64,000 nt of DNA from Bacillota bacterium (GTDB lineage: Bacteria; Bacillota; Dehalobacteriia; UBA4068; UBA4997), in NCBI GenBank assembly GCA_021769035.1, contig JAETTP010000001.1, positions 35,408 to 99,407 on the forward strand, given 5' to 3'. Within the stretch, counting starts at the first letter, position 1; every line of letters begins with the position of its first letter. Position numbers and translations under genes: made by a program. Below, one piece after another: positions 8,939 through 57,477 of this stretch. Below the pieces are notes generated by a model. That model worked only from the letters and a program-made list of their open reading frames with translations. It ran no database searches and was not told where the DNA came from.

Positions 8939-9023
8939 CCGCCCAGTTTCGCGATTGTCGCGGCTATTTTTATTATAGAAGCAAAATCGAGGGCTGACCC
9001 GGTTTAAGGGATCCGCTCTTTGT
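8928..9023 (-). ncRNA. antisense sRNA, family 1 (orphan/decayed-toxin copy)
   Basis: Minus-strand TTGACA(9058-9053)-17-TATACT(9035-9030). Body aaatacaaagagcggatcccttaaaccgggtcagccctc... homologous to copies at 11.5, 22.3 and 53.3 kb. Ends in hairpin plus U-run. Confidence 0.4.
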
Positions 9024-9712
9024 ATTTATAGTATAACAAGAAAAATTTGATTTGTCAACTGGTTTTTTGCCAAATTCATACAAAACAGCTAGGCTTACTA
9101 GGCAAGTATTTTGAAGACCAGGTGAAGAATTTGTGAAAAAAAATTAAAAATAATCTGTATTTTAAACACAAAACCCCTTTACGGATTGCAAAGGATGTGG
9201 TATAATCAGCTAAGATAAACTCTGTGTAAACTGATTTGGTTGTGTCAGGTGATGAGGCACAGGGTTTGGGGCCGCAAAAAACGGCCTGGGAGGAGGTTAT
9301 AATTAACGTTCCTTATGTGCTGAAAAGCGCTCCGCCAAAGCTTGCCGGCTTTGGGCAGCTGTTACAGGGGCAGCCCGCCAAAGGCCAACTGCCAAAAGCG
9401 GCCGCGCAACCCAGCATTACATATAGGAAAGCATTTGAAAATGCGCCGTGCCAAAACGTCGGCTGAAGCTAGCAGCCGGCCCCTTGGCCGAAGAACGTTC
9501 ATTCAGCCGCTGGCACGGGCAAAATTACGCAAACAGCAAAAAGGTTCCGTTTGCCCAATTTGGTAGAAGCAATATAAAAGAGGACAGCTAAAAACAGCAA
9601 TTATTTTTTCTTCTCCTCTTTTTGCCGGCTGTTGCCGGTTTTGCTAAAAACAAACGCAGCTTGCCTTGCTTTTTGCTAACAAATGCAAAAAAGAAAAAAG
9701 GAGGAACAAAAC

Positions 9713-11419: not shown

Positions 11420-11503
11420 ATGAGTTTTATGGAAGTCGCAACGTTTTTATTAGTACTTATAGCGTTTGCCGATGTGATATTAACCCATTGCAAAAAGAAA
11501 TAG
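11420..11503 (+). CDS. 27-aa hydrophobic Lys-tailed peptide (MSFMEVATFLLVLIAFADVILTHCKKK), putative type I toxin
   Basis: GAGGAGG SD 7 nt before ATG. That SD is perfectly complementary to an upstream CCTCCTC (SD-sequestering hairpin). Stop lies inside the terminator hairpin shared with the convergent sRNA. Confidence 0.55.
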   Translation: MSFMEVATFLLVLIAFADVILTHCKKK

Positions 11504-11584
11504 CCGCCCAGTTTCGCAGACTCGCGGCTATTCTTTTTAGCTAGCATCTGAGGGCTGACCCAGTTTAAGGGATCGGCTCTTTGT
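11492..11584 (-). ncRNA. antisense sRNA, family 1, putative type I antitoxin
   Basis: Minus-strand TTGACA(11619-11614)-17-TATAAT(11596-11591). Terminator is the same hairpin (11499-11532) followed by U-run. Overlaps peptide A 3' end by ~45 nt. Confidence 0.5.
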
Positions 11585-11760
11585 ACTTATATTATAGCAT
11601 TTGTTTTTGTTGTTGTCAATATGCCAAAAGCGGTTGAATAGAAAGTTTATGTTGTAATTTGTTGGTAAATATGCTATAATGGGACAGAAAAGAGTTGATT
11701 CTTTGGATGGCGGCCAACCTTACTCGTAAACTTTCGTTAAGCGAGGAAGGGGGTGAGCTC

Positions 11761-11844
11761 ATGAGTTTTGTTGAAGTAATTCTTTTACTTAGCTTTCTCA
11801 TTGAGGTTGTGGATTTTGTTTACCGAATCACAACAAAAAAATAG
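11761..11844 (+). CDS. 27-aa hydrophobic peptide variant (MSFVEVILLLSFLIEVVDFVYRITTKK), putative type I toxin
   Basis: Own promoter TTGTAA(11652)-17-TATAAT(11675). [13 protein letters not shown] sequestered by upstream ccttactcg. Stop sits in the atagccg...cggctat terminator. Confidence 0.5.
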   Translation: MSFVEVILLLSFLIEVVDFVYRITTKK

Positions 11845-11930
11845 CCGACCCGACCAAAGGCTGCGGCTATTTTTTGTACAAAATAGTTGAGTTAAGGTTG
11901 ATTGCTTGAAAATGCAGTCAACTCTTTTCA
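11836..11930 (-). ncRNA. antisense sRNA, divergent body, putative antitoxin of peptide B
   Basis: Minus-strand TTGACA(11965-11960)-17-TATAAT(11942-11937). Shared bidirectional terminator with peptide B. Confidence 0.45.
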
Positions 11931-12249
11931 TCTATTATTATAGCATTTGTTTTTGTTGTTGTCAATGCCCTTTTGCCGCCCAAACTCTTTAATGCCTAAT
12001 TTTTACCTAACCGCACCAGCAATACCTTTTCTCAATCGCTAAGTGTTCATAGAGGATTACATTTGCCTAAAGTCAAATGTATGCGTGAACACTAAGCTCT
12101 TGCTACGCCTTACAGGCTAAGCACTCGCTAAGTGTTCACGCAAAAAAACAGTAGACTTTTTGAGCTTGTGGGTGTAAAATATATTTATAAAAATTGTTAA
12201 AGCTTTCAGAAATCGACTTTGCTAACTTGCTCGATTGGAGGAATCAGCG

Positions 12250-18553: not shown

Positions 18554-20422
18554 ATGTCAAACTATATAATTGATTCCATTTACAACGAGATTTCTAACGT
18601 GGCGGTTTTATCGTTGACAGCGCAAGATTTAGGCTTTTATGAAACAATAGACAGGACCGCCGAAACCGCGGAAAGGTTTATGCAATCGGCAGCGCTGCTG
18701 CTGCCGGAGCAATTCCTGGCTTTACAAATTACGACAGGCAAGGGCGAAAAAAAGCAAGTTCAGACTTTTTCCAGCGCCGGCGTTGGCATAACCAAGCAAG
18801 ATTTTGGCTGGCTGTTTCAGTCTGTCGCGGATATTGCTTCCTTTTCCGCCAATGCTCCCGCCCGACAGCCCGGCAGCCGGAACAAAATTTATAAACTGTG
18901 CCCAAAGCCCCAAAATACCACTGCACAGCCTGGCAACAGAAATGACGAAAAGGAAGAAGCGGCTTCTTTGAAATATCTTTCGCAGTTGTTTGACGAAATG
19001 GCCCAAACTGCTTCGTCTATGCAAATTCAAGCCGGCGTTGCGGCGGACAATACGCCAACCGGAATGCTTACTTTGAGCTTGCCCGACAAGCTGAGCTTGA
19101 AAATGCGCACCTTGCTCTCCCTGGCTTTTCCTAAAAACCAAGTGGAAAGGCTGGATTCGTCCGCTGCCGACAATGAGCTTCCGCTGGCATTTCTGCAAAG
19201 GATTATGTCGGACGTATTAATAACCCTGTTGAACGATTCCCACCGGCAAAAACCTACCAGCAATTATTATGATTATGATGATGATGCTTTTGAATATGTT
19301 GACGAGCACGATGACGAGGAGCCTCTGGAATACACGGAGCCGGAGCCCGCTTGCCAGCCGCAAAACGACGACACGCTCATTGATGAACTGGATTTGAGCG
19401 TCCGCTCCTATAACTGCCTGAAACGGGCCGGGATTAATACAGTTGGCGAACTCCGACGCTTACAAGACAAGGATTACCGTAATATCCGCAACCTGGGCCG
19501 GAAGAGCATTGAAGAAATCGAATACAAGCTGGCTGAAATTAGTCGGCAGACCGCGCCAGCCCAGCTGACCGCACGCAGCTATCTGGATATGCTGGATGAA
19601 CTGATCGGCCTCCAGGAAGTGAAGGAGCAGGTTCGGAAAATAACCGCCTTTGTTAAAATGAAGCAGGATATGGCAAAGCTCGGCAAGGATAACGTTCCGA
19701 TGGTTCTAAATATGGAGTTTGTCGGCAACCCCGGCACGGCCAAAACCACGGTGGCCCGGATCCTGGCCGGCATTTTGAATGAAATCGGCTTGCTTAAAAG
19801 CAATGAAATTGTGGAAGTGGGCCGGGCGGATTTGGTGGCCCAATACGTGGGGCAAACTGCCGACAGGGTGAAATCGGTGTTTAAACGGGCCAAGGGCAAG
19901 CTGCTTTTTATCGACGAGGCCTACTCCCTGCTGGAAAACAGCGAGGGCGACTTTGGGGACGAGGCGATAAACACCATTGTGCAGGAGATGGAGAACAACC
20001 GCAATGATACGGTGGTGATTTTTGCGGGCTATCCTGACAAAATGCGGGCCTTTTTAGCCAGAAACCCCGGCTTGCGCTCTCGCATTCCTTTCCACATCAA
20101 TTTCGCCGATTACTCCGCGCAGGAAATGACCTCGATTATGCTGCTGGAAGCTGACAAACGGGGCTTCGCCTTTGATAACTCGGCCGTGTTTGATCGGGCG
20201 CTGAGCCTTTGTGAAAGGGCGGTCGGCAACCCGGAAATGGGCAACGGGCGTTTCTGCCGCAATCTGGTGGAAAATGCCATACTCAACTACGCCCTCCGTA
20301 ACTACGGCGCCGAAGCTGAGGCGGAGCCCAACCACAAATTCAGTCTGGTCGCGGCGGATTTTGTCCTGCCGGAGAATGTGCGGGAGGAAAAAGCGGCAGC
20401 GCCCATTGGCTTTAGGGCCTAA
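18554..20422 (+). CDS. AAA+ ATPase of SpoVK/CbbX type fused to RpoA alpha-CTD-like HhH domain and novel N-terminal domain
   Basis: C-terminal Walker [10 protein letters not shown], Walker [18 protein letters not shown] typical of SpoVK. Residues ~275-330 match [20 protein letters not shown] alpha-CTD. 300-nt structured leader from TTGACA-17-TAAAAT at 18229. Confidence 0.75.
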
Positions 20423-22158: not shown

Positions 22159-22277
22159 GTATTTTGGCGTATTTTTTAGTAAAATAATACTGTATTATTA
22201 AGCCTCGGTTCGCCAGCTCAAAAGTTTTTAACGGTTCTGCGATTGACAAAAACAATTTTCAATGCTATAATATAAAT

Positions 22278-22370
22278 ATAAAGAGCCGACCCCTCAAACC
22301 GGGTCAGCCCTCAAAAGCTTCAGTTAAAAATAGCCGTTACCTTTGGAGCAGGGCGGCTATTTCTTTTTGC
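22278..22370 (+). ncRNA. antisense sRNA, family 1, putative type I antitoxin (copy C)
   Basis: TTGACA(22243)-17-TATAAT(22266). Body aaagagccgacccctcaaaccgggtcagccctc. Terminator aatagccg...cggctatttcttttt shared with convergent peptide C. Confidence 0.5.
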
Positions 22371-22440
22371 AATGGGTTAATATCACATCTGCCAACGCTA
22401 TAAGTACTAATAAAAACGTTGCGACCTCCATAAAACTCAT
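22357..22440 (-). CDS. 27-aa hydrophobic peptide (MSFMEVATFLLVLIALADVILTHCKKK), putative type I toxin copy C
   Basis: One residue different from copy A. Same GAGGAGG SD with CCTCCTC anti-SD. Minus-strand promoter TTGCAT(22602-22597)-17-TATAAT(22579-22574). Homologous ~130-nt 5' UTR. Confidence 0.55.
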   Translation of the reverse strand: MSFMEVATFLLVLIALADVILTHCKKK

Positions 22441-45943: not shown

Positions 45944-47293
45944 ATGAAGTATGAGCTATGGCCGCAAATTTTGGCCGATTTACAACAACACCTCAGTCAG
46001 GAAACTATTGAACGTTGGTTCAACAACGTCATCGACGTTGACAAGCGCCAATCCACCCTATATATCAAAGTGCACACGGACGGACAGGCGGAATGGATGG
46101 AAAAGCACTATGCGCAAATTTTACAGGAAAGTGTAATCAAGGTAGCCGATGAAAATTTGGACGTGGTTTTCATCATCAGCGATAACCAGCCCGCCTTGGC
46201 CAATCAACAGACGCAAACCCAAGCAACTTACCAGCCGGAGGCCTACACGGCCCAAGGCAACCGTTTTAATTTCAATCCGCGTTACAACTTTGAAAGCTTT
46301 GTGGTTGGCAGCAGCAACCGTTTTGCCCACGCAGCCGCCCTGGCGGTGGCCGACCGCCCGGCCAAAAACTATAACCCGCTGTTTCTCTATGGCGGCTCCG
46401 GCCTGGGCAAAACTCATTTAATGCACGCCATCGGGCACCGGGTGCTCAGCCTGCGCCCAAACACCAATATTCTCTACATATCCACCGAAACTTTCACCAA
46501 TGAATTTATTTCCTCGGTGCGGCAGGGCTCCGCCCACAAATTTAAAAACCGTTATCGCACCGCCGACATCTTTCTAGTGGACGATATTCAGTTTTTAACC
46601 GGCAAAGAAGGAACCCAGGAGGAATTTTTCCACACCTTTAACGCGCTTTATGAGCAGGGCAAGCAAATTGTGATCAGCTCCGATCGGCACCCCAAGGACA
46701 TCGCCACTTTGGAGGAGCGTCTGCGCTCGCGCTTTGAGGGCGGTCTGATTACAGATATTCAGCCGCCGGATTTGGAAACCCGTATCGCAATTCTTCAATA
46801 TAAATCATCGGTGGAAAATTTAAAAATCACTAACGATTCGATCGCCTATATCGCTTCCAACATTCCCTCCAATATCCGCGAGCTGGAGGGCGCTCTGAAC
46901 CGAGTAAAATATTACGCCCTGGTGACTAACTCGCCGATTATTGATTTAAGCCTGACGGAAAAGGTAATGGAGGATATTTTGCCCAACAAGCAAAAGCAGG
47001 CCCTTTCCCCGGATTTAATCAAAGAATGTGTAGCCAACTACTTCAATCTGCAAAGCGCGGCCGATTTAGCCTCGCCCAGGCGCGATCAGAGTATCACCAA
47101 GCCGCGCCACATTGCGATGTATCTTTGCCAAACCCTGCTACATATGAGCCTGAACGAAATCGGCGAGCACTTTGGCAAACGCGACCACACCACGGTTTTG
47201 AACGGAACCAAGAAAATCACCAATAACCTGAAGCTGGACCTCAATTTGCAGCAATCCATTCAGGAGCTGACCGATATTATCAAACGGGCCTGA
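45944..47293 (+). CDS. dnaA: chromosomal replication initiator DnaA
   Basis: AAA+ GGSGLGKTHL. C-terminal DNA-binding domain. DnaA-box variants TTTTCCACA upstream. Confidence 0.95.
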   Translation: MKYELWPQILADLQQHLSQETIERWFNNVIDVDKRQSTLYIKVHTDGQAEWMEKHYAQILQESVIKVADENLDVVFIISDNQPALANQQTQTQATYQPEAYTAQGNRFNFNPRYNFESFVVGSSNRFAHAAALAVADRPAKNYNPLFLYGGSGLGKTHLMHAIGHRVLSLRPNTNILYISTETFTNEFISSVRQGSAHKFKNRYRTADIFLVDDIQFLTGKEGTQEEFFHTFNALYEQGKQIVISSDRHPKDIATLEERLRSRFEGGLITDIQPPDLETRIAILQYKSSVENLKITNDSIAYIASNIPSNIRELEGALNRVKYYALVTNSPIIDLSLTEKVMEDILPNKQKQALSPDLIKECVANYFNLQSAADLASPRRDQSITKPRHIAMYLCQTLLHMSLNEIGEHFGKRDHTTVLNGTKKITNNLKLDLNLQQSIQELTDIIKRA

Positions 47294-47364
47294 ACGTTTA
47301 TATTGACAACAGTACTATATTATAGTAAAATATAGGCAAATAATTTTTATAGTGAGGTATAGTT

Positions 47365-47472
47365 ATGCATCTTCCAGTTTATTCTTATGTCTTATCGGCT
47401 GTCAATGTAGTAATATTAGTTGCTATGACCTATTTGGTCTATCGAGTAGCTAAATTTTTCCTGAAAAAGTAA
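47365..47472 (+). CDS. 35-aa hydrophobic Lys-tailed membrane peptide (MHLPVYSYVLSAVNVVILVAMTYLVYRVAKFFLKK)
   Basis: Promoter TTGACA-17-TAAAAT at ~47306. SD GTGAGGT. Strong terminator gagccgcccttttcaaacaaagggcggctttttttgtg immediately after stop. Confidence 0.45.
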   Translation: MHLPVYSYVLSAVNVVILVAMTYLVYRVAKFFLKK

Positions 47473-47539
47473 AGTTTAAGAGAACGAGCCGCCCTTTTCA
47501 AACAAAGGGCGGCTTTTTTTGTGTAAACACTTAGCGATT

Positions 47540-47950
47540 GACAAGTCCACTTTTTTTAGATAACAGCTTTTCCACCTGTGCAGAAAAAAAACTTTTTCTT
47601 AAACCGAAATCTTCAAAAAAAACCTATTGTGATATTCCGTTAATTATAGTATAATATTCAGACACAGAAAAGTTTTTCCACCGAGTTTTACAGATTTTGG
47701 AAAACTTTGTGCACATTGGCTGTTATTAATCTGTGTAAAACTAATTATGCCAGTTAAAAAAAGGTTTTTTGCACAAAATTACCCCAGGCAATTAACATTT
47801 TATACCCACGCCAAAAAAGGCAGCAAAACCTTATAAAATCTGGCTGCAAAAAGTTTTCCACAAAATAAACACAGCTTATTATTATTACCACCATTTAAAT
47901 AACTATAATAATATATATGAGCCTCACAACAATAATATTACCAAAGGAGT
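47540..47950. other. oriC region (dnaA-dnaN intergenic)
   Basis: Multiple DnaA-box-like 9-mers (ttttccacc x2, gttttccaca). AT-rich unwinding stretch. Internal TTGTGA-17-TATAAT promoter. Confidence 0.5.
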
Positions 47951-47958
47951 AAAATTCA

Positions 47959-49071
47959 ATGAACATTAATTGCCAAAAGGAAGATTTACTGTATGCCGTT
48001 CAGATTATCGGCAAAGCGATTTCAGCCAAAAATACAATGCCAATCTTAAACGGTATTTTAATTATTGCTGAGGAAAATTTTATCACCCTGCGGGCCACCG
48101 ATTTGGATATTGCTATTCAGTGCAACGCTCCGGCTGATGTGGTGGAAACCGGCGAGCTGGTGATTGCCGACGGCAAGCGTTTTATTGACGTGGTACGCCA
48201 ACTGCCGGATAATAATATTAATATCAGCCTGATTAATGATTTTGATATTAATATAAATTATGGCTCTTCTTCTATTAATATGCGTGGTTTTGCCGCCGAC
48301 CAATTTCCGCAGCTGCCCAATCTGGCCGGGGATATGCAGGCCAGTGTTAAGGGCGAGGTTTTTTCCCGCATGGTTAAGCAGACGGCTATTGCTTCCGCTA
48401 ACGACGAAATTCAGCCAATCCTCACCGGTATTATGCTGGATATTAACGGCGAGCAGCTGAATTTGGTGGCTACCGATTTTCACCGGCTGACCCTTTGTCA
48501 GGGAGTTTGGCAGACTCAAAACCAACAGCAGACTCAGGTTATCGTGCCGGCTAAAACTATGTTGGACGTGGCTAATCTGGCCGATGCGGAGGAACAGGTG
48601 GAAATCAGTATCAGCCATAACAACGCTTGCTTTAAGATGGGCGCAACTATTTTTGTTTCCCGCCTAATCTCCGGCCAGTTCCCGGATTATCGGCCGATTA
48701 TTCCCAAGGAGGAAAGCTTTAAACACCAGGTTTACGTCAACAAGCAGCTGTTGGGCAGCGCGCTGCGCCGGGCCAGCCTGCTTAGCAAGGACATAAACAA
48801 CACGGTGCGCCTGAAGTTTGAGGAGGGGCAGATCGTTATGACCGCCAACACTACGGATATTGGCAATATCCGCGAGGTTATCCCGGCTGATTTTCAGGGC
48901 GAGGAGCTGATGGTGGGCTACAACCTTAAATATCTTTTGGACTTTTTGAAAGTGAGCAGCAGCGAAAATATTTATATGAAGCTTTCCGGCAATTTAACCC
49001 CCGGCGTGATGTTGGAGGAGGATAACGCCAGCTTTACTTATATCGTGCTGCCGCTGCGTTTGATTGACTAA
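47959..49071 (+). CDS. dnaN: DNA polymerase III beta sliding clamp
   Basis: Three-domain beta-clamp. Conserved position. Confidence 0.95.
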   Translation: MNINCQKEDLLYAVQIIGKAISAKNTMPILNGILIIAEENFITLRATDLDIAIQCNAPADVVETGELVIADGKRFIDVVRQLPDNNINISLINDFDININYGSSSINMRGFAADQFPQLPNLAGDMQASVKGEVFSRMVKQTAIASANDEIQPILTGIMLDINGEQLNLVATDFHRLTLCQGVWQTQNQQQTQVIVPAKTMLDVANLADAEEQVEISISHNNACFKMGATIFVSRLISGQFPDYRPIIPKEESFKHQVYVNKQLLGSALRRASLLSKDINNTVRLKFEEGQIVMTANTTDIGNIREVIPADFQGEELMVGYNLKYLLDFLKVSSSENIYMKLSGNLTPGVMLEEDNASFTYIVLPLRLID

Positions 49072-49079
49072 AAAGGCGG

Positions 49080-49316
49080 GTGAGGCAAATGCCGAGTGAA
49101 ATACAGCAGATTAGGGTGGAAAGCCTGCCGATTACGCTGGCCCAGTTTTTGAAATGGTGCGGTGCAACGCTGACCGGCGGCCAGGCTAAGGAGTTGATTC
49201 AGGCCGGCCGGGTGCAGCTGAACGGCGAGCCTTGTTTGCAGCCAGGGCGCAAGCTACAACCGGGGGATTTGATTGAATTGCAGGGGAGCCGCTGGCAGCT
49301 GGTTTTGCCTGAGTAG
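49080..49316 (+). CDS. yaaA: S4-domain RNA-binding protein YaaA
   Basis: S4 fold. Conserved dnaN-yaaA-recF order. Confidence 0.8.
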   Translation: MRQMPSEIQQIRVESLPITLAQFLKWCGATLTGGQAKELIQAGRVQLNGEPCLQPGRKLQPGDLIELQGSRWQLVLPE

Positions 49317-49352
49317 GCTTGTTGAAGCAAGGGGGAATGGCTTATCTTACGT

Positions 49353-50468
49353 TTGGACAGCCTGTTGCTGCGTAACTTCCGCAATTATGAGGAATGTTCG
49401 CTGCAATTTCATCCCAAGCTGAATGTGATAATCGGCGATAATGCGCAGGGCAAAACCAATTTGTTGGAGGCTATCTCCTATTTGAGTTTGGGCTCCTCCT
49501 TTCGTGGCCAGCCTAATGATAAGATTAAACGTTGGGACAGTGATTTCTTCTTTTTGCGGGCCAACTACCAAAACCAGCTGGGCCCGCACAGCCTTTCTGT
49601 CGGTTTTCAAAAGCGGGAACGGATTTGGAAAAAGGACGAACAGCCTTGCAGCCGGCTCAGCGAGATTGTGGGCCAGCTGCATACTGTGGTTTTTAGCCCG
49701 GAGGATTTGAAGCTGGTGCAGAGCGGGCCGGACAAGCGGCGCGCCTTTTTGGATAGGGAAATGGTGCAGCTGCTGCGCGGCTATCATATTTATTTGAATA
49801 ATTACAAAAGGGCCTTGGTGCAGCGTAATAATTTGTTGAAGCAAATGCCGCCGGATTTGCTGTTTAGCTCCGCCGGCGACGAGCAGCTGGCAATTTGGGA
49901 GGAACAGCTGGCCATCAATGGGGCAGAGATTGTGCGGCGGCGCAGTTTTACCTTGCAGGCCCTGAATGAGATTTGTCAACAACTGCATTCGGAACTGACC
50001 GGCGGCCGGGAGCGTTTGCGCCTGGCCTATAGCTGTGCCTGGGCGGAGGCGGCCGGCTTGCCGGCGGCCAAGCTGGCTGATTTGCTGCGTCAAAGCTACG
50101 TCCAGGGCCGGCGGGAGGATAAGCAACGCCGTTTAACATTGCTGGGGCCGCACCGAGATGATTTTGCTATTTATATTAACGAGGTGGACGGCCGTACCTT
50201 TGGCAGCCAGGGGCAGCAGCGCACGGCGGCCCTAGCTTTGAAGCTTTCTGAGCTGGAATTGGTGCATAAGCTTTCCGGCTACTATCCATTGCTGTTGCTG
50301 GACGATGTTTTTTCCGAGCTGGACAGCAGCCGGCGGCAGGCTTTGCTGAGCCTGATGTTGAACAAGGCGCAGATTTTCATTACTTGCACAGAAATTGCCA
50401 GTGATTTGCGTGGGCTTAATCCGGCTGATTATCAGCTTTTTAAGGTTCAGGCCGGCAGTATAAAATAA
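49353..50468 (+). CDS. recF: DNA replication and repair protein RecF
   Basis: LLLRNFRNY, GDNAQGKTNLLEA Walker A, SMC-like signature. TTG start. Confidence 0.9.
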   Translation: MDSLLLRNFRNYEECSLQFHPKLNVIIGDNAQGKTNLLEAISYLSLGSSFRGQPNDKIKRWDSDFFFLRANYQNQLGPHSLSVGFQKRERIWKKDEQPCSRLSEIVGQLHTVVFSPEDLKLVQSGPDKRRAFLDREMVQLLRGYHIYLNNYKRALVQRNNLLKQMPPDLLFSSAGDEQLAIWEEQLAINGAEIVRRRSFTLQALNEICQQLHSELTGGRERLRLAYSCAWAEAAGLPAAKLADLLRQSYVQGRREDKQRRLTLLGPHRDDFAIYINEVDGRTFGSQGQQRTAALALKLSELELVHKLSGYYPLLLLDDVFSELDSSRRQALLSLMLNKAQIFITCTEIASDLRGLNPADYQLFKVQAGSIK

Positions 50469-50514: not shown

Positions 50515-51309
50515 ATGCAGAATTTGGATAAGATTAAGCAGGCGGAAATTGCCGTTTACGATTCCGGCGTGGGCGGTATCAGCTTTTTGCCCACAGCTTG
50601 CAGTTTGCTGCCGGCGGAGCGTTTCGTCTACTATGGCGATTTGGCTAACGCGCCTTACGGCGACCGCAGCCAGGCTTTTATTATTAATCGGGCCAGGGAG
50701 ATTGTGGCTTTTTTCCGCCAGCGTGGGGTTAAGGCTTTGGTGATTGCCTGCAACACGGCCACCAGCGCGGCGGCGGCCACTTTGCGGGCGGAGAACCCCG
50801 ACCTGCCGATTTTTGGCATGGAGCCGGCGGTGCATTTGGCTGTTAAGCGCGGCGAAAAGAAAATTATTATGCTGGCTACGGAGTTGACAGCCAACGGTGA
50901 AAAGCTGCGCCGGCTTTTAAGCGCGGAGGCCGGGGCGGCGGAAATTGTAACCATTGCTTGCCCCGGTTTGATGGAGTTGATTGAAACCAATTTGGTTAAG
51001 GGTGAAACGGCGGCGATTAAGGAATATTTGCAGGCTAAGCTTTTGCCGCAGGTGACGGACGGCTGCGCCGTGGTGCTTGGCTGCACGCATTATATTTTTT
51101 TGCGCGGTTTGCTGCCGCGGCTTTTTCCTGGTTTGCGCCTTTACGACGGCAATTTTGGCACAGCGCAAAATTTGCGCCATCGTTTGGCGCAGGCCGGCTT
51201 GCTGTGCCCGGAGGAGGGGCAGGCTATGGTTGGGGAAATTCCCTGCTTTGGTTTGCCGCCGGAAAAGTTTGCCGCTTATCTGAAGCTGGCCAGTTCATTG
51301 GAATATTAA
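50515..51309 (+). CDS. murI: glutamate racemase
   Basis: YDSGVGGIS, VIACNTAT, LGCTHY motifs. Confidence 0.9.
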   Translation: MQNLDKIKQAEIAVYDSGVGGISFLPTACSLLPAERFVYYGDLANAPYGDRSQAFIINRAREIVAFFRQRGVKALVIACNTATSAAAATLRAENPDLPIFGMEPAVHLAVKRGEKKIIMLATELTANGEKLRRLLSAEAGAAEIVTIACPGLMELIETNLVKGETAAIKEYLQAKLLPQVTDGCAVVLGCTHYIFLRGLLPRLFPGLRLYDGNFGTAQNLRHRLAQAGLLCPEEGQAMVGEIPCFGLPPEKFAAYLKLASSLEY

Positions 51310-51315
51310 GCTAAT

Positions 51316-51347
51316 AAAGCCCTCGGAGCGTGTACTCTGAGGGCTTT
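51316..51347. terminator. bidirectional terminator at island boundary
   Basis: aaagccctcggagcgtgtactctgagggcttt. Confidence 0.55.
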
Positions 51348-51359
51348 AATTAAAGATTA

Positions 51360-51686
51360 TTATTTATTTTTTCTTTTCTTGATAATTTTTTCCAGAAAAT
51401 ATTCTGAATATTGGTTGGGATTGTTAATAATCTCGTATGCTGCGATTGCAACCTGAATCCCGTACAAAGCGGCGGTTGTGGTTTTGGCTGAAACGTGGTC
51501 ATTAAAGTTGCGACGAAGTTCCTCTATAGTTTCATTTGAAACTTCTTTTCTCAAGCTGTTTAAGATACTAATAATGTTATCTTGCGTTAAATTAATTACG
51601 GGATTGTTGATTTCAAGTTTTAACCATTCATTCGTTTCCATAATGCTGTTTACTAGGTTAAAGCAAAATTTTGGATTTGTAAGCAT
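51360..51686 (-). CDS. hypothetical 108-aa protein, AT-rich codons, helical; possible HEPN-like Rx4H (RNFNDH)
   Basis: Start at MLTNPK with AGGAGG RBS 8 nt upstream. The ORF-track N-terminal extension MPNPKIRGV... is antisense to the sRNA promoter and is rejected. Confidence 0.5.
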   Translation of the reverse strand: MLTNPKFCFNLVNSIMETNEWLKLEINNPVINLTQDNIISILNSLRKEVSNETIEELRRNFNDHVSAKTTTAALYGIQVAIAAYEIINNPNQYSEYFLEKIIKKRKNK

Positions 51687-51755
51687 AAAAAAACCTCCTA
51701 AAATTTCGTTTGTAAAAGTCTTGCCAAAACAGGAGGTATATGCTATAATATTTAC

Positions 51756-51823
51756 ACCTCTTATTTTGGGGTTGGGCACTCACATTTGCTTTTGTGGGCG
51801 TGGTGGGTGTCCTTTTTTTATTT
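51756..51823 (+). ncRNA. sRNA X1 (promoter-to-terminator unit), convergent with RHH1
   Basis: TTGCCA(51721)-17-TATAAT(51744). Hairpin gggcactcac...gtgggtgtcc plus U9. No ORF. Confidence 0.4.
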
Positions 51824-51991
51824 GCTGAGTTCTTCGTCTACTTTTTCGTTTAACCAATCAGCTTTGGTTCTACCTTGAATTCTAAGTTTTGCTTCTAATG
51901 CTTCAACTTTTTCTCTTTTAAGCATTACGTTAAACTGTTTCATAGTTTTGCGTCTTTCACGAAAATACTCAGCTCTACTTTTTACGGCCAA
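51818..51991 (-). CDS. ribbon-helix-helix (CopG/ParD-like) small DNA-binding protein RHH1
   Basis: TTG start with AAAGGAGG RBS 7 nt upstream. ...KQFNVMLKREKVEALEAKLRIQGRTKADWLNEKV has beta-strand then two helices. Own minus-strand promoter TTGACA-17-TATAAT (52048-52019). Not in ORF track. Confidence 0.5.
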   Translation of the reverse strand: MAVKSRAEYFRERRKTMKQFNVMLKREKVEALEAKLRIQGRTKADWLNEKVDEELSK

Positions 51992-52148
51992 ATCGTCGCC
52001 TCCTTTGGTTGCCTGCTACAATTATATCAAGTTGCAGGCTACTTGTCAATAGGTTTTTGAAAAATTTAGATTGTAAGCATAAAAAACATCCTAAATTTTC
52101 GTTTGTAAAAGTCTTGCCAAAACAGGAGGTATATGCTATAATATTTAC

Positions 52149-52216
52149 ACCTCTTATTTTGGGGTTGGGCACTCACGTTTGCTTTTGCGGGCTTGGTGGG
52201 TGTCCTTTTTTATTTT
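52149..52216 (+). ncRNA. sRNA X2 (near-identical duplicate of X1), convergent with RHH2
   Basis: TTGCCA(52114)-17-TATAAT(52137). Same hairpin plus U-run overlapping the RHH2 stop codon. Confidence 0.4.
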
Positions 52217-52380
52217 TTTAACCTGTTATAGACCTCTTTAATACCTTGGCGAATGATTTCAGATTTTGTCAATCCAGTTTCTTGGACACAAAATTCAAGA
52301 CGTTTTATATCTTCTTCTGATAATCTAATTCGCGTATTTAATATTTTAGGGTCATTGGTTGGACGTCCTTTTGGGGACAA
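52210..52380 (-). CDS. ribbon-helix-helix (CopG/MobC-like) small protein RHH2
   Basis: TTG start after AAAGGAGGTG. (M)SPKGRPTNDPKILNTRIRLSEEDIKRLEFCVQETGLTKSEIIRQGI. Promoter TTGACA-17-TATAAT (52457-52428) overlapped by palindrome GTATCCACA-N14-TGTGGATAC. Confidence 0.6.
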   Translation of the reverse strand: MSPKGRPTNDPKILNTRIRLSEEDIKRLEFCVQETGLTKSEIIRQGIKEVYNRLKK

Positions 52381-52523
52381 GTTTTCACCTCCTTTTAGTA
52401 TCCACAATTATTATATGATATGTGGATACATTTGTCAAGAGGTTTTTGAAAAGTTTAGATTGTAAGCATAAAAAAACCTCCTAAAGTATTGAAATAACCC
52501 TCGGAAGCTGGTATAATAGATTT

Positions 52524-52599
52524 ACCGACCTCTAAAGGTTGTGTGTAATAACAGTATTGCTTGGCTTGTTTAGGGTGTTGCAATACTGTTATTTTTTTT
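52524..52599 (+). ncRNA. sRNA X3, convergent with RHH3
   Basis: TTGAAA(52489)-17-TGgTATAAT(52512). 11-bp stem aacagtattgc/gcaatactgtt plus U8. RHH3 stop lies in the stem. Confidence 0.4.
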
Positions 52600-52762
52600 G
52601 GCTCAAAAGTAAACTTATTCCTTGCCTAATTGCTTCGCCTTTAGTTATATTATTTTCTAAACTGTAAGCTTGCAATTTTTCTTCAGTTTCTAAATCTAGT
52701 CGAATACTGTACCGAATTGTTTTTGGATTATCTACTTTTGGACGACCAGTGCGTGGACTCAA
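52589..52762 (-). CDS. ribbon-helix-helix (CopG/MobC-like) small protein RHH3
   Basis: TTG start after AGGTGA. (M)SPRTGRPKVDNPKTIRYSIRLDLETEEKLQAYSLENNITKGEAIRQGI, paralogous to RHH2. Promoter TTGACT-17-TATAAT (52820-52790). Confidence 0.6.
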   Translation of the reverse strand: MSPRTGRPKVDNPKTIRYSIRLDLETEEKLQAYSLENNITKGEAIRQGISLLLSQKK

Positions 52763-52877
52763 ATCATCACCTACTTTCTGCCACACCATAATTATATAAA
52801 AAGCGTGACAAAAAGTCAATAGTTTTTTTGAAAAAATTCAGATTGACAAAAACAATTTAAAATGCTATAATAATAAA

Positions 52878-52963
52878 AAAGGCACCGTAAGTAAGCGGTT
52901 AGCCTCATCGTTTTGGTGTTATTTTTTAACAACCGTCACTACTGACACTAGTGGCGGTTTTTG
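52878..52963 (+). ncRNA. antisense sRNA X4, putative antitoxin of peptide D2
   Basis: TTGACA(52843)-17-TATAAT(52866). Terminator ccgtcact...agtggcgg plus U5. Overlaps last codons of convergent peptide. Confidence 0.45.
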
Positions 52964-53031
52964 CTATGTCTAAACTTAATCTCAATCGAAATTTTAAAAA
53001 TTCCAATATGAAATATCAGCTTTATTGGCAT
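52948..53031 (-). CDS. 27-aa amphipathic basic-tailed peptide (MPIKLIFHIGIFKISIEIKFRHSKNRH), putative type I toxin D2
   Basis: AAGGAGGTG SD 7 nt before ATG. Anti-SD atcctcc-aaaa-ggaggtg hairpin. Minus-strand promoter TTGACA(53238-53233)-17-TATAAT(53215-53210). ~170-nt 5' UTR carrying the CGCTAAGTG hairpin motif. Confidence 0.5.
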   Translation of the reverse strand: MPIKLIFHIGIFKISIEIKFRHSKNRH

Positions 53032-53308
53032 AGGCCTCACCTCCTTTTGGAGGATATTGACTAACCGTTAAGTGAGCACTTAGCGACTGCCAAGGCCGCA
53101 GGCCGCAGACAGAGCTTAGTGCGAACAAATACCGCAGGTGCAAATAGAATTGTCTGAAAACAAAACTTTGCTCCTGCGGTGCCTACCGTTTGTTACGATG
53201 CCTGTTTAAATTATACAAATTATTGTTCTTATTGTCAAGCTGCGCATAAGTTTTTGCTAACCTAATTTTGCGATTGACAAAAGCGATTTGAAATGCTATA
53301 ATAAAAGC

Positions 53309-53403
53309 ACAAAGAGCCGACTCCTTAAACCGGGTCAGCCATCAGAATTTAACAATTACATAAGTAATAGCCGTTTTTCTTGGTCAGGGCGGCTATTTTT
53401 TTT
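53309..53403 (+). ncRNA. antisense sRNA, family 1, orphan copy D (toxin decayed)
   Basis: TTGACA(53274)-17-TATAAT(53297). Body aagcacaaagagccgactccttaaaccgggtcagcc. Terminator aatagccg...cggctat-U9. Opposite strand 53404-53440 keeps only the 3' half of the toxin ORF (…LVLITFADLILTHCKKK*) with no start. Confidence 0.45.
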
Positions 53404-53508
53404 GCAATGGGTTAATATTAAATCGGCAAACGTTATAAGAACTAATAAAACCGCTACTAAATAGCCCTTAGTAGCGGTTTAGTATTATTTTTTTTGAATG
53501 TCAATATC

Positions 53509-54552
53509 TTAAAAAAGCCAGGCGCGAGCATAGGGCTGCCAATGCCATTCATTCAACAGAGAATCCAAATAGGGGCTGGTGGCGGCTGGCGCAGGATTTG
53601 GGGCTGCCATATTTTGATTAGGCATGGCCATTCTGGAAGCCACCGGCGCATTAACAATTTCGGAAATGGCAGGTGCAGCCGGGGCTACTGGAGCCATTGG
53701 AGCAGTAGCGGCGACGGTTTCTGCTGCTACAGTTGAATTAGCCGGTTGTAGGCTTTGTAATGCCTGTTGAAGGGTTTCGGTGTTCTGCCCGGTTAAAGTG
53801 GACAATATATTCATAATTTGCGGATTGTTGCTGACGTTTTTCAGCATTTGCAGCATTTGCGGATTTTCCTGCAATTCAGCCAGGCTGGTGGGCAAGTGTT
53901 GGTTGCCCAAGCCGGCAAAACCGGCCAGGCTGCTTAAACCGCCCAAGCCGCCTAAACCACCTAAGCCGGGGAAACCGCCTAAACCGCCAAGCCCACCCAA
54001 GCCAGGCAGGCCGCCCAAACCGGGCAGGCCGTTGGCTAAATTGCCCAGGCTGCCTAAATTGCCGCTGGCCAGGCTGCTTAAAAGTTGCAGGGGATTGGTA
54101 TTGGGCTTGCTTAGCAGACTGTTCATCATTTTGGCAAAGGGATTGTTGCTTTGATTAGCCTCTGCTTTAGGCTGAGCTTCCTTTTTTTTCTCATCAGTGA
54201 CTTTATCGCTAACTTCATCACTAACTTCAATAGGGGTGGTTTCAATGATGATGGTAGCCATTTCCGATTCTGTTGGCGTGGTCGATTCAGAAATTGGCTC
54301 TTCATTTGTGGAATTGTTGTTTGCTGGGGTTTCTGCGCTTGCTTCAACCTCAACTGTGGCCTCAGCCTCAGTTTCTGCCTCGGCATTGACTTCAATTTCC
54401 GCTTCAGCGGCTTCTATTGCTTCTTCGGAATCACCAGTTTCAGCCGCTTCTGTTTTGCTGTCTTTCACTTCCAGCTCGCTTAAATGTTGGGCCAGCTGTT
54501 CAAGCGCCTGGCTGGTTTCATACAAACGACTGATTAAATCAGTGTTGCTCAT
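53509..54552 (-). CDS. acidic low-complexity protein with EA/ET-rich N-domain and GLGG-repeat core
   Basis: AAAGAGGTG RBS. Preceded by terminator of upstream gene. Repeats LGGLPGLGGLGGLGGFPGLGGLGGLGGL. Confidence 0.6.
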   Translation of the reverse strand: MSNTDLISRLYETSQALEQLAQHLSELEVKDSKTEAAETGDSEEAIEAAEAEIEVNAEAETEAEATVEVEASAETPANNNSTNEEPISESTTPTESEMATIIIETTPIEVSDEVSDKVTDEKKKEAQPKAEANQSNNPFAKMMNSLLSKPNTNPLQLLSSLASGNLGSLGNLANGLPGLGGLPGLGGLGGLGGFPGLGGLGGLGGLSSLAGFAGLGNQHLPTSLAELQENPQMLQMLKNVSNNPQIMNILSTLTGQNTETLQQALQSLQPANSTVAAETVAATAPMAPVAPAAPAISEIVNAPVASRMAMPNQNMAAPNPAPAATSPYLDSLLNEWHWQPYARAWLF

Positions 54553-54613
54553 TTCTTCACCTCTTTCTTTAATAAAAGGCCGGTCTTAAGGATAAGGCCG
54601 GCCTTAGCGGGAT

Positions 54614-54958
54614 TTAGTTGTTGTTGCAGCCGCAACCGCAGTTCCAGTTGCAAACAAGGCCCAGGATGCTTTGCAGAATGGTCAGAGTAACCACAATGTT
54701 CACCCAATCGCCAATGAAGTTGTAGGCAGCGTTGCCCAGGTTGGAACCATAGTTGTTGCCGCAGCCACAACCGCATCCACAGCCGTTCCAGTTTCCGCAG
54801 CTGTTGCAGCCATTGTTGCAACCGCAGGAATTACAGCCGCAGGTGTTGCAACCGCAGGTGCTGTTCCCACAGGTCATTGGGGTGTTGTAGGTTACGGTTG
54901 GCATTGTGCCGCAGGAATTACAACCGCAGCTGTTGCCATAGATGGAATTTAAGAGCAT
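54614..54958 (-). CDS. Cys-rich protein with CGCNSCG repeats
   Basis: AAGGAGGT RBS. ~30% Cys/Gly/Asn in C-G-C-N-x-C-G units. Hydrophobic C-terminal segment. Confidence 0.55.
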   Translation of the reverse strand: MLLNSIYGNSCGCNSCGTMPTVTYNTPMTCGNSTCGCNTCGCNSCGCNNGCNSCGNWNGCGCGCGCGNNYGSNLGNAAYNFIGDWVNIVVTLTILQSILGLVCNWNCGCGCNNN

Positions 54959-55044
54959 TTTGTTGACCTCCTTTTAATTTTGATATTTATATTTATGAAT
55001 TAACAGGGCTGGTGGTGCAAACTATTTATCAGCCCTGGTTGTTG

Positions 55045-55338
55045 TTATTGCCCGGTGCAGGGTGTGAAAGCTTCTTCATCGTCGCAGGGGCGGCAGGTGC
55101 AGCAGACGTTGCCGGTGAAGCTGACGCCGCCTAGCGGCCAACGCCGGCCAAAAATTCCCCAACCGCCCATAGGAGTGAAGCAGCGGTTATCATGGCAGGT
55201 GCAGATGAAGTTTCTTTCCTCGCCGTTACATTGGGGAACACTACAGATGAAGGTTTCTTCCTCGCTATTACACGGAGAAAAACAACAGGGGCAATTTCTC
55301 CTCCCGGAGCAATTACAAAAATTATTACAGCAGGCCAT
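55045..55338 (-). CDS. Cys-rich protein (97 aa, ~20 Cys)
   Basis: Start at MACCNNFCNC with AAGGAGGG RBS 7 nt upstream. Terminator hairpin cagggctg...cagccctg follows. Confidence 0.55.
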   Translation of the reverse strand: MACCNNFCNCSGRRNCPCCFSPCNSEEETFICSVPQCNGEERNFICTCHDNRCFTPMGGWGIFGRRWPLGGVSFTGNVCCTCRPCDDEEAFTPCTGQ

Positions 55339-55487
55339 ATTAAGCCCTCCTTTTTTATGTTCAGCTTTGCGCTTTACATTTGTTTTATAGTACAAGATAT
55401 GCAGTTGTAACGGGGGCGGTGCTTGTCTGCCGGATTTGGCTTGTTTTGTTTTAAATTTTTCCTTAGGTATTGAAGCGAGAAAAAAAA

Positions 55488-55845
55488 TGTGGTATAATGT
55501 GAGTACTCAGTGAAATCAAGCCGCAGGCGATGATTGAACTGTAGTCGAACAAATACCATAGTGCAATCTGTTGTGATAAGGTGAGATAACCTTGTTTCTA
55601 TGGTATAATGTGAGTACTCAGTGAAATCAAGCCGCAGGCGATGATTGAACTGTAGTCGAACAAATACCATAGTGCAATCTGTTGTGATAAGGTGAGATAA
55701 CCTTGTTCCTATGGTATAATGTGAGTACTCAGTGAAATCAAGCCGCAGGCGATGATTGAACTGTAGTTGAACAAATACCATAGTGCAATCTGTTGTGATA
55801 AGGTGAGATAACCTTGTTCCTATGGTATAATAATATAATATTAAG
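55488..55845 (+). repeat. 111-bp tandem direct repeat, 3 full and 1 partial copies, each with an extended -10 promoter and a TGAGTACTCA palindrome
   Basis: TATAAT at 55493, 55604, 55715 and 55826 (period exactly 111). Copies differ at 1-2 positions. First copy has -35 TTGAAG. Confidence 0.9.
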
Positions 55846-55886
55846 GAAATAAAAGCTCGATTTGATTAATTTAAGGAGGCATAACC

Positions 55887-56112: not shown

Positions 56113-57477
56113 ATGGAGCAAATAACAGCTGCCGATTTGGCAAAGCTGCATTGGTTTGCAGTGCCGGACGGCTTTTTGCTTTTGGACATAAACAGCGGCT
56201 CCGTGCTGCGTATTGACGAAGCCACCGCCGCTTGCTTGGACAAGCTACAAAACGGCGAGGCTGTGGCCGAGGGCAGCGCCGAGGCGGAAATTTTGGCGGA
56301 GCTGGCCCAGCTGCGGGCTGACGGCCTGCTTTTTACAGAGGACGCCTACCAGGATAAATATCAGCCGCCGGCGCCGGTGTTGAAATCCCTGTGCTTGAAC
56401 GTTTCCCACGACTGCGATTTGCGCTGTCGCTACTGTTTTGCTTCCACCGGCAGCTTTGGCGGCAAACGGGCCCGCATGAGTTTTGAGGTGGGCGCGGCGG
56501 CTCTGGATTATCTGCTGGAACATTCCGGCAGCCGTAAATTTTTGGAAGTGGATTTTTTTGGCGGCGAACCGCTTTTGAATATCGACGTGGTAAAACGGCT
56601 GGTGGCTTACGGCCGGAAGCGGGAAAAGTATTTTGGCAAAACCCTGCGCTTCACCTTTACCACCAACTGCGTGGGCCTGACCCCGGAAATTTCCGCTTGG
56701 GCAGAGGAAAATAATATCAGCGTGGTTTTAAGCCACGACGGCCGGCCGGAAATGCACGACCGGCAGCGGGTTTTTCCAAATGGCAAGGGCAGCTATGAAA
56801 TTGTAACGGAGCGGATTAAGCAGTTTTTGGCCCAAAACAGCCGGGGCAACGCCATTGTGCGCGGCACCTATACGGCTTTTAATAAGGATTTTACAGAGGA
56901 TATTAAGCATTGGCTGGATTTGGGCTTTCCTCGGCTTTCTATGGAGCCGGCGGTGGAGCTGCCGGACGGCCCCGGCAGTGAGCGCTGCCTGCGGGAGGAG
57001 GATTTGCCGGCCCTGCGGCAGGAATATTGGCGCTTGGCCGATTTGTTCCAGCAGCGGCGCGAGGAGGGCCGGCCCTTTGAATTTTTCCATTTTAAACTGG
57101 ATTTGCGGCATGGCCCCTGCCTGCCTAAGCGGCTGACCGGCTGCGGTGCGGGCTATGAATATCTGGTGGTGACGCCGGAGGGGGATTTTTACCCTTGTCA
57201 TCAGTTTGTCGGCCGGGAGGGCTTCCGTCTGGGCAGCCTCAGCGAGGGTATCACCGAGGCCGGACGAGAGCTTGGCGAGCAATTCCGCCAGGCCCACGTT
57301 TACAACAAGCCCAAATGTCGGGCCTGTTGGGCGCGCTTTTTCTGTAGCGGCGGCTGCCACGCCAACGCGGAGCTTTTTCATCACGATATTTTGCAGCCTT
57401 ATGAATTGGGTTGTTCAATCAGTCAAATGCGCCTGGAGTGTGCGATTTGGCTGGCTGTTAAGGAGGTTGAAGCATGA
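56113..57477 (+). CDS. radical SAM/SPASM-domain SCIFF maturase (thioether-forming)
   Basis: CDLRCRYC radical SAM cluster motif. C-terminal SPASM Cys clusters (CGAG...CHQF...CRAC...CSGGCHA). Confidence 0.85.
   Translation: MEQITAADLAKLHWFAVPDGFLLLDINSGSVLRIDEATAACLDKLQNGEAVAEGSAEAEILAELAQLRADGLLFTEDAYQDKYQPPAPVLKSLCLNVSHDCDLRCRYCFASTGSFGGKRARMSFEVGAAALDYLLEHSGSRKFLEVDFFGGEPLLNIDVVKRLVAYGRKREKYFGKTLRFTFTTNCVGLTPEISAWAEENNISVVLSHDGRPEMHDRQRVFPNGKGSYEIVTERIKQFLAQNSRGNAIVRGTYTAFNKDFTEDIKHWLDLGFPRLSMEPAVELPDGPGSERCLREEDLPALRQEYWRLADLFQQRREEGRPFEFFHFKLDLRHGPCLPKRLTGCGAGYEYLVVTPEGDFYPCHQFVGREGFRLGSLSEGITEAGRELGEQFRQAHVYNKPKCRACWARFFCSGGCHANAELFHHDILQPYELGCSISQMRLECAIWLAVKEVEA

Follow-up and report, generated by a model that had tools for sequence, protein, structure and literature searches.

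Upstream of the gene for the SCIFF precursor peptide, in a stretch of 64,000 nucleotides from a Bacillota genome (contig JAETTP010000001.1; hereafter the window, whose first letter is position 1), a cassette of 111 bp stands three times in tandem. What is this cassette, and how did it come to be there? The reading that we favour, to which we give about an even chance (roughly 0.5), is that of a sporadic, structured cassette nested in promoters, amplified in tandem through its −10 repeats, which would provide the SCIFF operon with four stacked promoters and a repeated structured leader.

The array and its empty site

Tandem Repeats Finder places the array at 55490–55831 (period 111, 3.1 copies, 99% matches, score 670), and a repeat search returns three in-register 111-bp units at 100, 99 and 98% identity. 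Such an array cannot be the product of chance. An earlier, sequence-only reading of this DNA had described the triplication, lying between a Cys-rich gene on the minus strand and SCIFF on the plus strand. Both the divergent arrangement and the repeat are as it claimed, the latter borne out also by the marked copies and contig breaks described below. It had further described a fourth, partial unit reaching to 55845. An extra TGGTATAAT is indeed present, but it amounts to only 9 bp (55823–55831), and the array ends at 55831; its composition is 3 × 111 bp plus these 9 bp, after which the native SCIFF leader begins. Three of the four occurrences of TGGTATAAT continue into GTGAGTACTCA, the fourth into the SCIFF leader. 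Among the units only two positions vary; units 1–3 carry the combinations C57/T108, C57/C108 and T57/C108.

Could the array be an artefact of assembly, a single unit expanded or some other copy number mis-assembled? At 333 bp it is longer than short reads, and no other assembly in the collections spans it. Yet each copy has a unique combination of single-nucleotide polymorphisms (SNPs), so that three distinct units are resolved. Conspecific contigs from at least eight samples, carrying the upstream 114-aa gene, end at 55499–55521, just inside the first unit; short SCIFF-maturase contigs from many public runs, where they reach upstream, start at 55775–55802, inside the last unit. Contigs break at both edges of the array in at least 10 samples, which indicates a repeat of at least two copies, not a single copy, in those samples, and the three SNP-marked copies argue for at least three units here. 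The promoter-to-unit and unit-to-leader junctions recur in independent samples and in a strain variant of ~99% identity, whose contigs break at the same edges and whose last copy reads T, not C, at unit position 108. We conclude that the array is genuine and present in independent samples. An assembly error, offered beforehand as a possible refutation, is highly improbable. The array does carry a practical warning, since at the SCIFF promoter it interrupts all short-read assemblies of this species.

Is the cassette a duplicated piece of the SCIFF promoter? To answer this we compared the window with a sibling species that has an identical SCIFF peptide and a maturase of 95% identity. There, only 203 bp lie between the divergent genes. 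The window aligns with the sibling contigs up to 55498 and again from 55833. The hexamer of the first −10 box (P1) ends at 55498 and the element starts at the following base; the alignments thus place 333 extra bases precisely after the −10 hexamer and before the ancestral transcribed region. Four more relatives, with 88–83% maturase identity, show the same empty-site pattern. Five sibling species conserve TATTGAAG-N17-TGnTATAAT, followed directly by a leader of 35–75 nt with its ribosome-binding site (RBS); the element is absent from them. By these alignments the cassette is an inserted element rather than a duplicated piece of the SCIFF promoter.

A family of two-hairpin elements and its promoter boxes

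A scan of metagenome contigs with the core 22-mer ATCAAGCCGCAGGCGATGATTG found two full-length, single-copy homologues. One (L047) lies between an XRE-type helix-turn-helix (HTH) gene and uvrA, in an arrangement that is identical in five metagenome-assembled genomes of one species (L051–L055). The other (L048) lies upstream of a gene for an ECF-type sigma factor. Profile and covariance-model searches added a full copy upstream of orf195-uvrB-uvrA (L059). Three other uncultured Bacillota, whose relatives are Peptococcaceae-like, are the source of these promoter-flanked homologues. The window unit is 82–87% identical to that of L047, 78–79% to that of L048 and 65–67% to that of L059. A diverged paralogue within the window, at 53072–53186 (56–58%), folds into the same two domains, again with compensatory changes, and is without −10 boxes. 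It lies antisense within the presumed 5′ untranslated region (UTR) of a toxin-like small minus-strand open reading frame (ORF), behind a perfect minus-strand promoter (53238–53210). A second window paralogue is partial and more diverged (table 1). Three of the species share two blocks without a single difference, GTGAAATCAAGCCGCAGGCGATGATTGAAC (30 nt) and GAACAAATACCATAGTGCA (19 nt). The full element is absent from the relatives L057, L058 and L060/L061, and the tandem triplication is found in this species only. On these sequences the distribution is sporadic and the downstream genes are unrelated. Together these elements, each structured as two hairpins, make up a small family that had not been described before.

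Searches elsewhere returned little. A scan of one genome from each of 185,579 species for a 22-mer out of the variable 5′ region of the unit, matched exactly, gave no hit, though it is weak for diverged copies, and a second 22-mer had none in the metagenome contigs. Two of the four loci found with the core 22-mer (L046, L049) and a further match (L023) are chance or coding. Four patterns run against viral contigs gave no element and one chance coding match (L050), and blastn against phages and plasmids gave nothing meaningful. Rfam 15 held no match to the array at the gathering threshold over the whole window. At E ≤ 10, searches of 3 kb and of 241 bp gave only a chance snoRNA match (E 8), and at E ≤ 1 there was none for the copies in L047, L048 and L059. 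No tRNA or tmRNA origin of the unit was found. The literature on the SCIFF promoter and tandem repeats, and on the core sequences, contained no match.

Two observations concern the relatives themselves. In L057, between uvrA and uvrC (12981–13052), there is a weak (32.5 bits) hairpin like that of domain 1 (described below), with GA/GA loops and a GCC-GUA-GGC apex, which may be a distant family member or chance. In the L047 species, genes for an ApaLI-like restriction endonuclease and a methyltransferase are inserted between uvrA and uvrC (L051 12910–14731; also L052 and L053).

A second filled and empty pair is provided by uvrB. In L060, a relative of L059 with the same Metallophos-uvrB-uvrA synteny, a promoter with an SOS box ends in ...TTGTGGTATAAT, with a 30-nt leader and then uvrB behind it. 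The homology of L059 extends to ...TTGTGATATAAT, where the element takes over. Compared in this way, the SCIFF and uvrB pairs both put the element exactly at the −10/+1 junction.

How are the ends of the element related to the promoters that flank it? A consensus scan of the array finds TTGAAG-17-TATAAT (P1) and three GTGAGA-17-TATAAT sites, each of the four with TG before the hexamer. The −35 TTGAAG that the sequence-only reading had noted lies 17 bp before the first TATAAT. As the criterion for an extended −10 box we took TGnTATAAT (TRTGnTATAAT in Firmicutes) at a suitable distance from a gene, and such boxes, likewise claimed beforehand, are conserved at either end of each promoter-flanked homologue, across four species. 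In all four lineages the element begins right after TRTGnTATAAT, which is immediately 5′ of GTGA; at both ends TGTG or TATG precedes nTATAAT. The 3′ end is TRTGGTATAAT (TATACT in L048) and lies 40–95 nt upstream of a start codon. In copy 1 the final 9–11 nt (TATGGTATAAT) form the extended −10 box of P2, within a promoter-like site at 55581–55609; the P4 box, at the end of copy 3, precedes the native leader and lies 55 nt before the SCIFF ATG.

This 3′ box is also part of a stem. Each unit contains an inverted repeat, ATACCATAG/CTATGGTAT, with arms 36 nt apart; it had been described as 8 bp and is in fact 9 bp, but its 3′ arm does overlap the next −10 box, as had been said. Since the paired part of the box covaries with an internal 5′ arm, the box is part of the element rather than a duplicated target. 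Its final AAT is unpaired, yet kept in three of the four lineages (ACT in L048), as expected if the box works as a −10 hexamer. Judged by consensus and pairing, the 3′ arm of the second hairpin is an extended −10 box, and each copy ends in a new promoter-like site.

All full members share one architecture: a domain 1 hairpin, a conserved linker CGAACAAAU and a domain 2 hairpin closed by the 9-bp stem. In copy 1 these correspond to ~55499–55550, the linker CGAACAAAT and 55553–55606. The long hairpin of domain 1 contains symmetric internal loops, G-A/G-A, that do not vary, and has GCC-GNA-GGC at its apex. Compensatory changes replace AAUCA/UGAUU with CUGC/GCAG or AAGC/GCUU, and, in the closing stem of domain 2, CCAUAG/CUAUGG with CCGCAG/CUGCGG or CCACAA/UUGUGG. 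In an alignment of nine sequences 90.4% of the cells were paired and 22 of 35 pairs changed on both sides; none of 500 shuffles scored as high and slid registers gave 0–6, though the alignment was fitted to the model and represents ~6 independent lineages. On the plus strand the window unit, L047 and L048 fold at −34.7, −31.4 and −31.4 kcal/mol, against −24.8, −24.1 and −20.9 kcal/mol on the opposite strand. The z-scores on the plus strand are −3.1 to −5.0 and weaker on the minus strand for these three. The promoter-flanked copies in plus orientation have one to four G-U pairs and no A-C pairs. The SNP C57U keeps its pair as G-U: in copy 3 a C-to-T change at 55768 turns G-C into G-U. These comparisons point to an RNA (or single-stranded DNA) element with conserved secondary structure.

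Several resemblances were considered and set aside. Hammerhead, C/D-box and K-turn motifs share only the symmetric tandem G-A loop, the bulge and core motifs being missing. The ssoA CS-6 motif (TAGCGA) is confined to the two diverged paralogues and lies inside a stem. The linker CGAACAAAT does not make a LexA box: GAAC is directly repeated, the inverted GTTC half is missing, and what it has in common with the SOS box of L059 and L060 is 10 nt. That SOS box, the canonical Gram-positive LexA box CGAACAAATGTTCT at 849–862 of L059 and ~3657–3670 of L060, lies ~65 nt upstream of the uvrB −10 box. The first 10 nt of this box recur exactly as the conserved linker CGAACAAATG of the L059 element, probably by coincidence.

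Nor does the array appear to code for protein. A 135-aa ORF crosses it on the minus strand, and the sequence-only reading had called this an artefact of the repeat. We agree: the frame has no homologue among 5.8 billion proteins and no record as a called gene. A coding function is further at odds with conserved blocks that are 100% identical in nucleotides, third codon positions included, and with stem variation that is compensatory. The array is not a 5′ UTR of the divergent Cys-rich gene either, the strand asymmetry and the promoter boxes pointing the opposite way.

What, then, of an operator? It had been proposed that each unit is a promoter followed at +1 by a palindrome, TGAGTACTCA, the binding site of an HTH repressor, and that triplication stacks the promoters and titrates the repressor. 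The palindrome is perfect over 10 bp, stands at the expected start position behind an extended −10 box in each unit, and is restricted to these three sites within 64 kb. But it is conserved in no homologue (TGAATATCGG, TGAACACTTA and TGAGCACTTA stand in its place), and its bases covary with a partner strand 30–40 nt downstream; TGAGTACTCA forms the 5′ side of the outer domain 1 stem and is not a protein site. A perfect 10-bp palindrome has a chance expectation of ~0.1 in ~100 bp, which makes it weak by itself, and there is no further site in the window to define a regulon. An operator thus seems very unlikely, and a cognate HTH regulator for TGAGTACTCA loses its basis. The alternative that had been offered, a repeated structured leader, is strengthened, since the inverted repeat closes a hairpin whose arms show compensatory changes.

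How the cassette may act and how it may have spread

If the four promoter-like sites are used, what would be transcribed? Transcription from P1, with the ancestral −35 and −10 boxes, would begin ~7 nt into copy 1 and give a leader of ~380 nt that holds as many as three structured units. From P2 and P3 it would begin ~7 nt past the respective hexamer, within copies 2 and 3. When any of these upstream promoters is used, the SCIFF leader would be longer by one to three structured units. P4, which the last copy provides, adjoins the native leader and would restore a nearly ancestral transcript. The consensus scan of the array found no terminator inside or after the units, so all these starts would read into SCIFF, its maturase and ilvBN. 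The net effect would most likely be transcription of these genes that is preserved or raised in dependence on copy number, and the 5′ hairpins may stabilise the longer transcripts. When the whole leader is folded, pairings between units dominate and the RBS is unpaired with the array there, a fold that is not informative about regulation.

How might the cassette reach promoters and then multiply? We suggest that it does both because it is bracketed by near-identical −10 boxes of 9–13 bp. Slippage or illegitimate recombination between these boxes may be the route; alternatively, a site-specific single-strand mechanism may insert the element 3′ of TATAAT. The two filled and empty pairs fit insertion 3′ of a target, without duplication, and they fit recombination between −10 boxes as well.

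Stated in its strong form, the second route makes the cassette a mobile element that is not autonomous, whose hairpins are recognised by an enzyme of HUH/Y1 type (IS200/IS605- or REP/RAYT-like) and which is inserted 3′ of TATAAT, the tandem being the outcome of successive insertions. Derivatives of IS200/IS605 (PATEs) and REP/RAYT systems insert 3′ of a short specific sequence without duplicating it and have strand-specific hairpins near both ends. Several features of the element would suit this: in two independent pairs it lies exactly 3′ of TATAAT with nothing else changed, its two hairpins are subterminal and favour one strand, and its own terminal TATAAT would let it re-insert beside itself, head to tail, with a period of exactly 111 bp. 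Its sporadic distribution, and covariation at positions outside the RNA expected from the adjacent promoter, also suit such an element. However, the ~20 larger ORFs scanned in the window include no cognate transposase, and the two hairpins are unlike each other, whereas the ends of IS200/IS605 are alike. Near-identical copies occur inside the array only, other copies in the window being 33–58% identical and without TATAAT ends, and the 22-mer from the variable part went unmatched in the species scan described above. Recombination between boxes of 9–13 bp explains the same facts without an enzyme. We regard a dedicated enzyme of this kind as unlikely.

Could the RNA itself have come first? In that case the element would be either a set of self-promoted small RNAs (sRNAs) or a leader of a new cis-regulatory kind that binds a protein or acts like a riboswitch; triplication would serve dose or cooperativity, and the −10 boxes would merely be its promoters. 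The strong covariation in three helices argues for this, as do the invariant GA/GA internal loops, the GCC-GCA-GGC apical hairpin, the CGAACAAAU linker, a strand asymmetry that favours the promoter-bearing strand and the SNP that preserves its pair. Two of the four species, moreover, have the element beside uvr genes. Against it stand the unrelated genes downstream (SCIFF, uvrA, the ECF sigma gene, orf195-uvrB), the close relatives whose orthologous sites are without the element and the lack of an Rfam match. The features of a riboswitch were looked for in vain: no class of downstream gene recurs, and neither a terminator or antiterminator nor sequestration of the RBS, hence no expression platform, was found. 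Those of a tandem sRNA cluster were found in part, since each unit has a promoter-like site, but none is followed by a terminator as a discrete sRNA gene would be. Finally, its basal pairs lie upstream of the predicted start site. A functional RNA as the primary cause is possible, and we think it a good deal less probable than the promoter-nested cassette.

We return to the promoter-nested cassette, on which several points weigh negatively. Which promoters are used, where transcripts begin and how SCIFF expression responds are predictions from consensus matches, and the copy number of the unit is resolved in this assembly alone. The family comprises about six independent members, found through one exact 22-mer scan and its neighbours. 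The identical blocks of 30 and 19 nt suggest, as sequences, a specific function with a ligand, protein or RNA partner. Covarying pairs at element positions 1–6 precede the start expected from the adjacent −10 box, so that a complete fold would require either single-stranded DNA or a transcript begun at a promoter or unit further upstream. The diverged copy at 53072–53186, antisense in a toxin-like 5′ UTR and without −10 boxes, is unexplained by a promoter cassette. Among the larger window ORFs scanned there is no other mobilising gene either, and the window is 64 kb of the genome. The identical blocks, the covariation ahead of the start and the copy at 53072–53186 leave room for a dedicated function as RNA or single-stranded DNA.

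A bolder version can be put forward tentatively. The cassette might be a promoter-homing element of ~111 nt that integrates precisely behind sigma-A −10 hexamers, either by a dedicated single-strand mechanism or by using the −10 consensus as a portable recombination site. Such a ‘promoter parasite’ would spare the host gene by bringing a replacement −10 box at its 3′ end, expand in tandem and rewire 5′ leaders. In a variant of this idea the RNA of the element would be a trans- or cis-acting regulator as well, one diverged copy lying antisense in a type I toxin-like 5′ UTR.

How does the element compare with known systems? Putative mobile promoters are upstream sequences of 50–100 nt, at least 80% identical, that precede non-homologous genes within or between genomes (PMC3488235; Matus-Garcia, Nijveen and van Passel 2012). 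The units of the window and of L047, 82–87% identical over 111 nt, before SCIFF and uvrA respectively and with promoter boxes, fall within that definition. Unlike that class, which is drawn by similarity alone, the element has a covarying structure of two hairpins, sits at the exact −10/+1 junction, carries its own replacement −10 box at the 3′ end and is tandemly amplified.

Correia elements of Neisseria, pneumococcal BOX elements and REP/REPIN sequences are short, non-coding, intergenic and sporadic, form stable hairpins and can supply promoter elements; in BOX elements the internal boxB module is tandemly repeated in variable copy number. The element is likewise short, hairpin-forming, intergenic, sporadic and promoter-supplying. 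It differs in being without terminal inverted repeats or a demonstrable target-site duplication, in its very low copy number, in that the whole element rather than a sub-module is repeated, and in its insertion at a promoter hexamer. Nor does it qualify as a miniature inverted-repeat transposable element: its ends, GTGAG... and ...GGTATAAT, are not complementary, all stems being internal, and no target-site duplication was found. Head-to-tail structured RNAs of ~100 nt are represented by the multicopy sRNAs LhrC1–4 of Listeria and by tandem glycine riboswitches, with a promoter for each or one leader for all. The array resembles them in its head-to-tail units of ~100 nt, each with a promoter-like site, and departs from them in having no terminator per unit, expression platform, consistent regulon or Rfam membership. 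Stacked or duplicated promoters are generally known to raise expression, and four in-phase extended −10 promoters before one operon look the same. What is duplicated here is, by contrast, an inserted foreign cassette in which a stem arm doubles as a −10 box.

Genomic setting and significance

The coordinates of the array, of the genes behind it and of the paralogues are collected in table 1.

Table 1. Features of the SCIFF promoter region and related elements in the window.
Feature	Positions	Strand	Description
P1, ancestral SCIFF promoter, sigma-A-type	55470..55498	+	−35 TTGAAG at 55470–55475, 17-bp spacer, TGTGGTATAAT; scan 10/12 with TG
Element copy 1, 111 nt	55499..55609	+	GTGAG...CTATGGTATAAT; fold −34.7 kcal/mol, z −4.4; model R1 119.5 bits
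Element copy 2	55610..55720	+	3′ end is the P3 extended −10 box; promoter-like site 55692–55720; model R1 match
Element copy 3	55721..55831	+	3′ end is the P4 extended −10 box; promoter-like site 55803–55831; model R1 match
Native SCIFF leader	55832..55886	+	RBS AAGGAGG at 55873–55879; homologous to the sibling leader directly after the −10 box
SCIFF precursor gene, 45 aa	55887..56024	+	Pfam PF13165 on the identical peptide in related contigs; first gene behind the array
SCIFF radical-SAM maturase	56113..57477	+	downstream in the same operon; then ilvB and ilvN-like genes
135-aa ORF, translation artefact of the repeat	55374..55781	−	111 = 37 codons, open on the minus strand
Diverged paralogue	53072..53186	+	nhmmer E 7.5e-6; model R1 81 bits; fold z −5.0; 56–58% identity
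Partial, more diverged paralogue	12053..12139	−	domain 1 hairpin and a short second hairpin; model R1 29.4 bits, E ~3e-5

The diverged paralogue lies in a type I toxin-antitoxin-like module at 52843–53238. A perfect 12/12 minus-strand promoter (53238–53210) is followed by a predicted leader of ~170 nt, which is the reverse complement of the diverged copy, and by a small ORF from 53040 or 53031 to 52948 (MPIKLIFHIGIFKISIEIKFRHSKNRH), whose Shine-Dalgarno sequence lies within a CCUCC/GGAGG hairpin. Convergent to it is an sRNA-like unit with a perfect 12/12 promoter with TG (52843–52871) and a terminator (52931–52959). Paralogous sRNA-like units occur at 53266–53453, 22235–22418, 11442–11620 (minus), 8989–9038 and 11842–11965 (minus). 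They are 78–82% identical, each with a perfect TTGACA-17-TGCTATAAT promoter, a transcript of ~90 nt and a terminator, and they converge with small hydrophobic ORFs, among them ...MSFMEVATFLLVLIAFADVILTHCKKK, whose end is at 11503, and MSFVEVILLLSFLIEVVDFVYRITTKK, whose end is at 11844. They have no Rfam match at the gathering threshold. These are probably several type I toxin-antitoxin loci.

The module belongs to a species-specific islet of ~2.2 kb (~51300–53500) between a racemase gene and a 347-aa gene, where the sibling (L006) has ~850 bp. Besides the toxin-like modules and the diverged element copy, the islet contains two small RHH/CopG-like genes (52210–52407 and 52589–52819) and repeats of 94% identity (51665–51823 and 52060–52215). 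Divergent from SCIFF, on the minus strand at 53509–55341, are three genes without a Pfam match: one of 347 aa, of low complexity with GLGG repeats, and two very Cys-rich ones of 114 aa (CGCN repeats) and 98 aa. They are kept in sibling species with varying lengths (109 and 80 aa) and may be spore-coat-like. Since dnaA, dnaN and recF lie at 45944–50468, the window covers the region of the chromosomal replication origin, and the SCIFF operon is ~9 kb from dnaA. At 18554–20422 a protein of 622 aa joins an RNA polymerase alpha C-terminal domain (PF03118) to an AAA ATPase and a lid domain, an unusual fusion.

What sets the element apart is its exact nesting in promoters, its self-supplied −10 box, its covariation without an Rfam entry and its tandem amplification before the SCIFF operon. 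It adds a candidate family, with good covariation, to the structured RNAs that Rfam does not yet list. It also offers a testable case of a promoter architecture that varies in copy number, before an operon for a widespread and poorly understood ribosomally synthesized and post-translationally modified peptide, SCIFF. If our reading is true, bacterial promoters would be rewired by a nested cassette that carries a spare −10 box, and the number of promoters, together with the leader, would change in steps of 111 bp.

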